From Escherichia coli (GTDB lineage: Bacteria > Pseudomonadota > Gammaproteobacteria > Enterobacterales > Enterobacteriaceae), in assembly GCF_003334785.1 (NCBI RefSeq), contig NZ_QOWV01000009.1: 64,000 nucleotides of DNA; one strand, written 5' to 3'. The stretch's first letter is position 1; the number at the start of each line of letters is the position of its first letter. Both the position numbers and the translations under genes were made by a program. The notes under the pieces are model-generated. The model was not told where the DNA came from. It ran no database searches and was given only the letters and a program-made list of their open reading frames with translations. Shown here piece by piece: positions 46,717 through 47,385 of this stretch.

Positions 46717-47385
46717 TTAATACTCTGAAGGCAAACGGTTGATAGCGACCAGTTTGCCTTTATTCATTTCGATATAGCCGCCTTTACGCAAAGCAGCGAG
46801 AACTTCTGCGACGACAGAACGCGATATGCGTGTACGTTGATGGATATAATTCATCACACCAATACGTGATCGCAATTCTTCATTCCAGTCAATCATTGAT
46901 AATAATGTTGCGCGGATTTGTTCGTAGGAATTATGCCCAATGAGCTGCACGTCGCGTAATTCCAGAATTCTATTTTGCCAGGCTAACCAGTAAAAAGCGT
47001 CTCGCCAGAGTTGATTTTGTTCAATAAGCGTAATGGTTTGTTTGGCTGGTAGATGATATCCCGTACAATTTCCTTCTGATATTAATTTGTATGGTATATC
47101 GTTTTTCATTAAACCATCAGCCAGCCCCATAATATAAGGAGCCTGGGTAATACCGATAAGTACGTTTTCTTCTCTACGCAGAGAGATAACTCCCTCTAAA
47201 ATAACGAAAGTATCTTCGTTATTGACATCACTGGAAAATATAACTTGCTTTTCATTATTAAACTCGAAGCGCGTACCGTATCTGGACAAACATTTATCGA
47301 GCTTACCAAATTCCTGAAGAGGTTTAACTACAGATAACATTTGCGCGTCCTTTGCAGTAATGCCCGTCAAATCCTTGACGGGCAT
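46717..47385 (-). CDS. yaiV: Uncharacterised protein YaiV, putative Crp/Fnr-like regulator
   Basis: 222-aa ORF; beta-rich N-terminal half and C-terminal helix-turn-helix-like segment (RTRISRSVVAEVLAALRKGGYIEMNKGKLV) resembling the Crp DNA-binding domain. Function inferred from pattern only. Confidence 0.8.
   Translation of the reverse strand: MPVKDLTGITAKDAQMLSVVKPLQEFGKLDKCLSRYGTRFEFNNEKQVIFSSDVNNEDTFVILEGVISLRREENVLIGITQAPYIMGLADGLMKNDIPYKLISEGNCTGYHLPAKQTITLIEQNQLWRDAFYWLAWQNRILELRDVQLIGHNSYEQIRATLLSMIDWNEELRSRIGVMNYIHQRTRISRSVVAEVLAALRKGGYIEMNKGKLVAINRLPSEY

Follow-up and report, generated by a model that had tools for sequence, protein, structure and literature searches.

PapX, MrpJ, FimZ and EcpR/MatA are MarR-like, Xre-type or LuxR/GerE-type regulators that are encoded in or beside adhesin operons and act in trans. 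Here, a putative regulator gene located directly downstream of an autotransporter adhesin gene was analyzed in a 64,000-nucleotide stretch of Escherichia coli DNA (RefSeq assembly GCF_003334785.1, contig NZ_QOWV01000009.1), which is referred to below as the window. The 222-codon open reading frame (ORF) listed at 46717..47385 on the minus strand is not a new gene; it is the known gene iprA (yaiV, b0375; STM0374). It matches the NCBIfam equivalog NF008810, "hydrogen peroxide resistance inhibitor IprA", with 458.3 bits against a cut-off of 359 (E 2.8e-138), it carries the gene name iprA in RefSeq, and yaiV is the older name of the same gene (PMC11408624). The 1.3-kb iprA region was found in 5420 of 5426 complete E. 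coli genomes with at least 95% identity at the best place per record. YaiV was listed in the Crp family together with Crp, Fnr and YeiL by Ishihama's group (PMC4797297). The peroxide-resistance phenotype of iprA, a gain in hydrogen peroxide resistance upon deletion, is known here through the NCBIfam family name and citing papers, and the citing literature also lists IprA among the factors that influence fim expression; the knockout phenotype, as related there, is striking.

The identity of iprA, its Crp-family assignment and its synteny are already published. The association of its whole family with adhesin loci, the candidate operators, the evidence on the start codon and the hairpin of the 5′ leader are put forward here as hypotheses, and no publication on them was found. 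The interpretation towards which we lean, with slightly more confidence than doubt, is that IprA is a Crp-fold regulator with its own promoter, which belongs to an adhesin-associated family, binds palindromes near iprA and near the autotransporter gene, and also acts on distal genes.

Crp Architecture of IprA

The first-pass annotation of the window, made from the sequence alone, had called the product Crp/Fnr-like and had described a beta-rich N-terminal half followed by a C-terminal helix-turn-helix (HTH). Both descriptions are borne out by structural modeling and profile comparison, in agreement with the published family list. The AlphaFold model, built on 60 diverse homologs (pLDDT 91.8, pTM 0.84), runs from an N-terminal helix through eight strands, a short helix and a long helix (112-133) to a winged helix (138-200), and the N-terminal eight-stranded beta-roll of the cyclic-nucleotide-monophosphate (cNMP)-binding fold is present. 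The top 50 Foldseek matches are all Crp-family proteins (CRP, Vfr, Clp, NtcA, GlxR), with TM scores of 0.63-0.75 at 13-18% identity. The family profile aligned with CRP from end to end in a comparison with PDB sequences (E about 0.003-0.01), and hhalign of the family against CRP gave 93% probability (E 2.6e-7, 172 columns). As modeled, IprA has the full Crp/CAP architecture, in which a long central helix links a beta-roll sensor domain to a C-terminal winged helix. In CRP, a central helix of this type makes up the dimer interface, and IprA may dimerize in the same manner.

In the Pfam profile search, the helix-turn-helix was found as HTH_46 (PF15977; residues 153-220, E 1e-30, full 68-residue profile), which all 60 aligned homologs match, and the Crp fold was recognized by structure. 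The cNMP_binding profile is marginal for IprA (E 0.014-0.016) and reaches E≤0.001 in 6 of the 60 members; HTH_Crp_2 is never significant in IprA or in the 60 members. The recognition helix starts with S-R-S, which is kept in 55-58 of the 60 members and is placed by hhalign on S179-R180-E181 of CRP helix F. R180 of CRP is a base-contacting residue. A literature search on HTH_46/PF15977 found no relevant publication.

Phycobilisome linker domains (CpcN and others) also appeared as apparent relatives in a PDB sequence search with the single protein and were rejected as a chance match. Their summed E of 7.5e-9 arises from repeats in the target, with single domains giving E 3-12 (IprA residues 109-168 in the 222-aa numbering).

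Adhesin Context of the HTH_46 Family

An exhaustive search yielded 520 family representatives at 50% clustering, and those looked up are all from Enterobacterales. For a wider sample of one genome per GTDB species, a degenerate DNA pattern was derived from near-invariant C-terminal columns, which excludes the iprA orthologs by design; it retrieved 94 loci, 93 of which hold true family genes. Titles available for 80 of the 94 loci all name Enterobacterales except for one contig labelled Chryseobacterium. This contig (Chryseobacterium sp. 18061, L077) holds a typical enterobacterial tandem HTH_46 pair with a GTGTA-ATTT-TACAC palindrome, and contamination or mislabelling is a likelier explanation than genuine presence of the family outside Enterobacterales.

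Neighboring ORFs at 98 surveyed loci were clustered and named by NCBIfam. Fimbrial subunits (51), chaperones (42), ushers (34) and LuxR/GerE-type regulators (14) were counted among these loci, and the LuxR/GerE genes in the fimbrial loci encode proteins separate from the HTH_46 members. The dominant layout is LuxR< FIM< FIM< USH< CHAP< FIM< [HTH46]> [HTH46]>, with tandem or paired copies in 54 loci and a fimbrial gene immediately upstream and divergent in 41. A fimbrial subunit, chaperone or usher gene is present in 37 of the 51 non-orthologous loci with at least 3 kb of upstream flank, and an autotransporter gene in 2 of the 51; where at least 5 kb is available on both sides, the corresponding numbers are 13/17 and 2/17. 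The HTH_46 family as a whole is adhesin-associated. IprA would represent its autotransporter-linked branch in Enterobacterales, the other members being mostly tandem pairs divergent from chaperone-usher operons.

Individual loci illustrate the range of contexts. In Rahnella (L012), a 33%-identical homolog lies directly downstream of an 888-aa autotransporter gene amid heme-uptake and FecIR genes, and a paralog in Citrobacter youngae lies directly upstream of an autotransporter gene. Two tandem copies close a chaperone-usher operon in Hafnia (L010), after a GerE-type regulator gene, and in Enterobacter asburiae (L011) the neighbors of a second copy are a PapD-like gene and a GerE-type regulator gene.

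Two further observations concern the location of these genes. In Enterobacter, Lelliottia, the Klebsiella oxytoca group and Huaxiibacter, a fimbrial operon, a LuxR-type gene and a tandem HTH_46 pair occupy one conserved site that adjoins menI (ydiI), ydiJ and ydiK (L018, L020, L022, L037-L042, L046, L047, L083, L093, L104 and others). The members of such a pair belong to different subfamilies, which suggests that their products could form a heterodimer. The copies in Buttiauxella agrestis (L009) and at L097 have no adhesin gene nearby and lie less than about 2 kb from ahpC-ahpF, which encode alkyl hydroperoxide reductase; this proximity echoes the peroxide phenotype of iprA and may be due to chance.

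Candidate Operators

Perfect palindromes of the form GTNNN-N4-NNNAC occur in 34 of 66 regions located 5′ of family genes (2.14/kb), compared with 15 of 272 other intergenic regions of the same loci (0.20/kb), so that palindromes of the GTCnn-N4-nnGAC type are about ten-fold enriched 5′ of family genes. Up to three are present per region, at about -228, -155 and -90, with invariant half-sites and varying spacers. GTCTA half-sites were counted 37 times and GTGTA half-sites 13 times, and the two types go with different recognition helices (LSRSGIMRIL and LSRSGVMRIL at GTCTA loci; LSRSSIMKIL and LSRS(S/T)VMKML at GTGTA loci).

Palindromes of the same geometry flank the autotransporter gene beside iprA, against a background of 0.094 perfect sites per kb in the window. 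In the autotransporter leader, GTCCG-N4-CGGAC at -142 from the ATG is perfect in Salmonella, Citrobacter and Raoultella; E. coli and Enterobacter carry it with a single mismatch, and the spacers differ among all of these genera. About 170 nt before the autotransporter start codon (window 50335-50500, minus strand) are highly conserved across six genera, and the sequence further upstream is not. The alignment of this leader (A6, six genera) contains the invariant columns ATTGAACC and GCATAAT, and the position of the promoter-like TTGAAC-18-CATAAT places the palindrome at about -60. In the iprA 5′ region, GTCAA-N4-TTGAC lies at about +13 of the iprA promoter. That promoter, listed as a constitutive sigma-70 promoter with an H-NS flag in the yaiU>yaiV spacer (PMC3946193), was found verbatim in the window in both hexamers and spacing; its -10 is conserved across genera, and the implied iprA transcription start is at about 47386. 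A generic promoter scan missed this published promoter, and hits of the scan are accordingly treated as weak evidence only.

Directly before the autotransporter ATG, TTACGTCCCTGAGGAGGGATGAC is invariant, and its inverted repeat, TCCCT / AGGGA, overlaps the Shine-Dalgarno sequence; the repeat could be a translational control element.

Possible Local and Distal Roles of IprA

The most likely mechanism can be proposed from these features. An IprA dimer would bind 5-N4-5 palindromes of the GTCnn-N4-nnGAC type. The palindrome at about +13 of the iprA promoter has a position suited to auto-repression, and that at about -60 of the autotransporter promoter is close to the position of a class I activator, through which IprA may control the adhesin gene. 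Furthermore, IprA may act on distal genes, giving rise to the published RpoS/KatE-dependent effect on peroxide resistance and the effects on fimbrial genes. IprA probably acts on both its neighborhood and distal genes, and a link to the neighboring adhesin is plausible. Pure positional coincidence is disfavored by the autotransporter genes beside the Rahnella and C. youngae copies, by the fimbrial operons near the paralogs and by the pair of palindromes.

Several points weigh against this interpretation. One large subfamily, representing 4 of 20 protein clusters at 50% identity, contributes most of the palindrome enrichment, which therefore reflects few independent events; the co-variation of helix and half-site may be a single event, and the LuxR/GerE-type regulators of the same fimbrial loci could be the palindrome binders. 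The three half-site types (GTCAA, GTCCG and GTCTA) differ from one another, and no such palindromes were found in Rahnella and Franconibacter or in the iprA 5′ region of Enterobacter. The iprA 5′ palindrome, which extends to 13 bp, may be a mere RNA hairpin or a weak terminator of the autotransporter gene, and Enterobacter has a canonical terminator in its place. No published experiment linking IprA to the palindromes or to yaiT/ehaB was found. Finally, iprA is intact where the autotransporter gene is disrupted by insertion sequences (IS), and the phenotypes related in the citing literature (peroxide resistance, fim) are global, which argues against a purely local role.

A wider proposal is more tentative, and we regard it as a possibility somewhat short of even: that these proteins form an undescribed, Enterobacterales-wide family of Crp-fold adhesin-locus regulators with altered ligand pockets and GTCnn-N4-nnGAC operators, in which IprA couples EhaB/SeaB to a lowered RpoS-dependent oxidative-stress defense.

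The alternative that survives best, although we consider it rather unlikely, is that IprA is a global or stress regulator that lowers RpoS/KatE-dependent peroxide resistance via distal targets, with its position beside the autotransporter gene being inherited gene order without any coupling. The neighbor is named yaiT/yaiU in K-12, ehaB in O157:H7 and seaB in Salmonella; RefSeq describes it as "autotransporter ... beta-barrel domain-containing protein" and uses ehaB in O157 and others, and yaiT/ehaB is the positional ortholog of Salmonella SeaB (PMC13248724). The order in the window is autotransporter gene, iprA and convergent ampH, with hemB beyond the autotransporter gene, and Salmonella, Citrobacter, Raoultella, Enterobacter and Franconibacter share it. 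Synteny extends from hemB to ddlA in Salmonella and Citrobacter and over the neighboring genes in Raoultella, Enterobacter and Franconibacter, and seaB always adjoins hemB upstream of iprA (PMC13248724). Adjacency of the orthologs is explained by descent within this syntenic block and proves little on its own. The same data contradict the suggestion of the first-pass annotation that the two genes form an accessory module: the pair belongs to the core genome of E. coli and keeps its synteny throughout Enterobacteriaceae (also PMC13248724). Its intuition about the layout is supported by the family-wide adhesin association, but the word accessory does not apply to the iprA locus.

A global role would also fit the inputs reported for iprA. 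A CyuR site is predicted for yaiV at -75, and yaiV is 4.5 log2 up with cysteine (PMC11408624); binding and regulation of yaiV by FNR are confined to cells without H-NS and StpA (PMC3688515). In S. Enteritidis under hypochlorite, yaiV is reported as up 2.5 (units not given), and in low-shear culture yaiV is up 8.3-fold in Salmonella and unchanged in E. coli. A scan for FNR sites found only one with 2 mismatches at 47467-47480 and one with 1 mismatch inside iprA at 47011-47024, neither of which is at a standard activating position. With its own promoter and the CyuR/cysteine, FNR and hypochlorite inputs, iprA is an at least partly independent, silenced and inducible transcription unit; in Salmonella, it is reportedly part of a two-gene operon. 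In addition to these inputs and the synteny, the global phenotypes in the citing literature and the retention of iprA where the autotransporter gene is broken by IS elements favor a purely global role. On the other hand, synteny does not account for the Rahnella homolog, which again lies downstream of an autotransporter gene in unrelated surroundings, for the C. youngae paralog, for the fimbrial operons beside most other family members, or for the conserved palindromes of one geometry on both sides of the autotransporter gene.

It is improbable that switching the adjacent autotransporter gene on and off is the sole job of IprA, as proposed by the first-pass annotation, which saw in it a dedicated local regulator. 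The position beside an adhesin gene, the family-wide adhesin context and the palindrome at about -60 are in keeping with this proposal, as is the apparent repression of native SeaB/EhaB expression in vitro (PMC13248724). However, genomes of the K-12 lineage carry IS3 inside the autotransporter gene and other strains IS2 or IS1203, yet iprA is intact throughout and highly conserved. The role described in the citing literature lies in peroxide resistance and fim genes, and no published effect on the neighbor was found.

Start Codon and 5′ Leader

The features of the locus are collected in Table 1. The reading frame given by the first-pass annotation is real, but a start at its 16th codon is far more likely than one at its first. 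The true start is almost certainly Met16 (ATG 47340..47338), giving a product of 207 aa. This assignment follows from the NF008810 alignment, in which profile positions 1-207 correspond to ORF residues 16-222, from the length of almost all IprA homologs (207 aa) and of the RefSeq annotation (624 nt), from the AAGGA upstream of Met16, and from the intergenic alignment, in which the upstream ATG does not share the iprA frame in Salmonella (43 nt from the iprA ATG) or Citrobacter (46 nt). In Raoultella, the upstream ATG is 45 nt from the iprA ATG and is followed by an in-frame TAA. No Shine-Dalgarno sequence was seen upstream of the ATG at 47385. Moreover, transcription starting at about 47386, at the foot of a hairpin, would leave no room for a ribosome-binding site and excludes this ATG as a start codon.

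Table 1. Features of the iprA locus in the window, with their basis.
Feature	Position	Strand	Basis
iprA coding sequence, 207 aa + stop, Crp/Fnr-fold with HTH_46 winged helix	46717..47340	-	
Shine-Dalgarno-like AAGGA, 7 nt before Met16 ATG	47348..47352	-	Sequence reading; AGG core conserved in alignment
First 15 codons of the 222-aa ORF, most probably a 5′ leader that is not translated	47341..47385	-	Upstream ATG unconserved in frame; no Shine-Dalgarno
Perfect 13-bp inverted repeat, 4-nt loop; core GTCAA-GGAT-TTGAC (47379..47366)	47358..47387	-	Fold and conservation
Predicted CyuR-binding motif GAAGAAATACTGGTAATTTAATC, overlapping promoter spacer and -10	47392..47414	-	Identical to PMC11408624 Table 1 site
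iprA sigma-70 promoter TTCACT-18-TTTAAT (-35 47422..47417, -10 47398..47393)	47393..47422	-	Match to PMC3946193
yaiT/ehaB-type autotransporter adhesin gene, intact, 968 aa, directly upstream of iprA	47428..50334	-	ORF list, RefSeq
Promoter-like TTGAAC-18-CATAAT for autotransporter gene	50416..50445	-	Consensus scan; hexamers in blocks invariant across six genera
Operator-like palindrome GTCCA-CATT-CGGAC, ~60 nt upstream of implied autotransporter transcription start	50462..50475	-	
ampH, convergent with iprA, stop codons abut	45559..46716	+	ORF list, RefSeq

A real 222-aa protein starting at 47385 is thus very unlikely: the frame is open from this position in the window and a few database entries are 222-223 aa long (P0010, P0085), but profile coverage, homolog and RefSeq lengths, Shine-Dalgarno position, intergenic alignment and the published promoter all favor Met16. 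The N-terminus of the 222-aa entries looks conserved because the inverted repeat is conserved at the sequence level. The N-terminal peptide is MPVKDLTGITAK in the 222-aa product and MLSVVKPLQ in the 207-aa product. The distance of 42 bp to yaiT given by the first-pass annotation is correct for the first ATG of the ORF, and the true spacer, from the autotransporter stop to Met16, is 87 nt. The abutting stop codons of ampH and iprA were described correctly (0 nt in the window), and this gap is not conserved: in Salmonella it is 44 nt, in Citrobacter 1 nt, and in Enterobacter the two genes overlap by 4 nt.

Escherichia, Salmonella, Citrobacter and Raoultella share the conserved inverted repeat of the iprA leader, the loop of which varies. 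The 101-nt region that holds it (47330-47430) folds with -27.7 kcal/mol (z -3.8). The repeat may act either in the mRNA, as a 5′-terminal hairpin, or in the DNA, as an operator at about +13 of the iprA promoter. Rfam gave no match for the iprA leader or the autotransporter leader, and the hairpin half-site TTGACGGGCA had 6 matches in the window compared with 5.4 expected. Enterobacter (L007:5925-5950, aligned to window 47358-47420) lacks the conserved hairpin and has there a canonical intrinsic terminator, GCGGGGG-AATATAT-CCCCCGC followed by TTT, just past the autotransporter stop codon. A terminator in place of the hairpin suggests that the conserved role of the spacer could be to separate transcription of the two genes.

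At least 10 complete E. coli genomes (H1-H10) carry IS1 in the spacer between iprA and the autotransporter gene (window 47415-47423; L108 ~2500-3300, NZ_AP022105.1). The 9-bp target duplication of this IS1, GGAGTGAAG, includes the -35 hexamer of the iprA promoter, so that a copy of the core promoter stays with iprA and the gene is severed from upstream sequence, including autotransporter read-through. On the opposite strand, a convincing terminator is missing where ampH runs antisense into iprA; the only structure there is a 5-bp stem at 46737-46750. On the plus strand of window 46717-47387, the iprA 5′ hairpin is followed by the T-rich ATTATTTAGATT. Read-through from ampH could be antisense to all of iprA and stop at the hairpin.

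Ligand Residues

No effector-binding residues could be assigned by eye in the first-pass annotation, and the alignments lead to the same outcome. The CRP residues E72, R82 and S83, which contact cAMP, are replaced by Leu, Ile and Pro. The E72 position is Leu in 41 of the 60 members, and the R82 and S83 columns are variable across the family. G71, kept in 58 of 60, is the only cAMP-pocket contact retained; T127 and S128 become Asp and Val, with an Arg just before them kept in 47 of 60. The [4Fe-4S] cluster of FNR is bound by C20, C23, C29 and C122. No counterpart of Cys20/23/29, the N-terminal cluster, was found in IprA, as the hhalign alignment with FNR (22% probability) covers FNR only from residue 37 onward. 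Redox sensing by conserved cysteines was rejected as a family feature, since the only two cysteines of IprA are kept in 13 and 36 of the 60 members.

By these alignments, IprA is a Crp fold without classical cNMP or Fe-S chemistry, and, with the cyclic-nucleotide contacts and the FNR cysteines lost, it would have to answer another signal or its own abundance. That IprA is a classical Crp/Fnr sensor binding cAMP/cGMP or an oxygen-labile iron-sulfur cluster is hardly credible in spite of its Crp fold, the weak cNMP_binding matches and the name "CRP-like cAMP-binding protein" given to homologs in some sources, because the cAMP contacts are replaced (at R82 by a variable column), the FNR alignment begins past the cluster cysteines, and neither cysteine of IprA is generally kept.

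Significance

The analysis provides several handles on iprA, namely, the 207-aa start with the promoter and hairpin layout, two conserved candidate operators, and a family link to fimbrial and autotransporter loci, which suggests what sort of regulator IprA is. If the proposals above are true, they would explain how adhesin display is coupled to stress resistance in enterobacteria, and regulators would be named for many uncharacterized fimbrial operons.

Comparison with Known Systems

The gene in the window is the same as that of the "hydrogen peroxide resistance inhibitor" IprA/YaiV and has the same neighbors in Salmonella. It differs from annotated iprA in an ORF that is 15 codons longer, and its autotransporter neighbor is intact, unlike that of K-12.

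Like PapX, MrpJ, FimZ and EcpR/MatA, IprA is a small, putatively DNA-binding protein whose gene borders an adhesin locus and for which effects on further surface or stress genes have been reported. The fold of IprA is unrelated to theirs, being HTH_46 on a Crp fold, and MarR_2 reaches E≤0.001 in 1 of the 60 members. KpfR of the Klebsiella pneumoniae kpf cluster is likewise a "helix-turn-helix" regulator at the 5′ edge of a type-1-like chaperone-usher operon, but unlike the genes of the surveyed layout, it is co-directional and co-transcribed with the operon (PMC7861041). Membership of KpfR in the family is not supported: in the coding part that was compared, the fragment NNKKIAQATDLSNMM (near residue 165) lacks S-R-S and matches no surveyed family protein.

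CRP and the Crp/Fnr regulators (Vfr, Clp, NtcA, FixK2, CooA, FNR, PrfA) are similar to IprA in fold and in the Arg at the position of CRP R180. The candidate operators of IprA share the 5-N4-5 geometry of FNR sites, but their GTCnn half-sites are unlike TGTGA or TTGAT. In contrast to the HTH_Crp_2 domain of Crp regulators, the C-terminal domain of IprA is HTH_46, and its identity to them is 13-18%.

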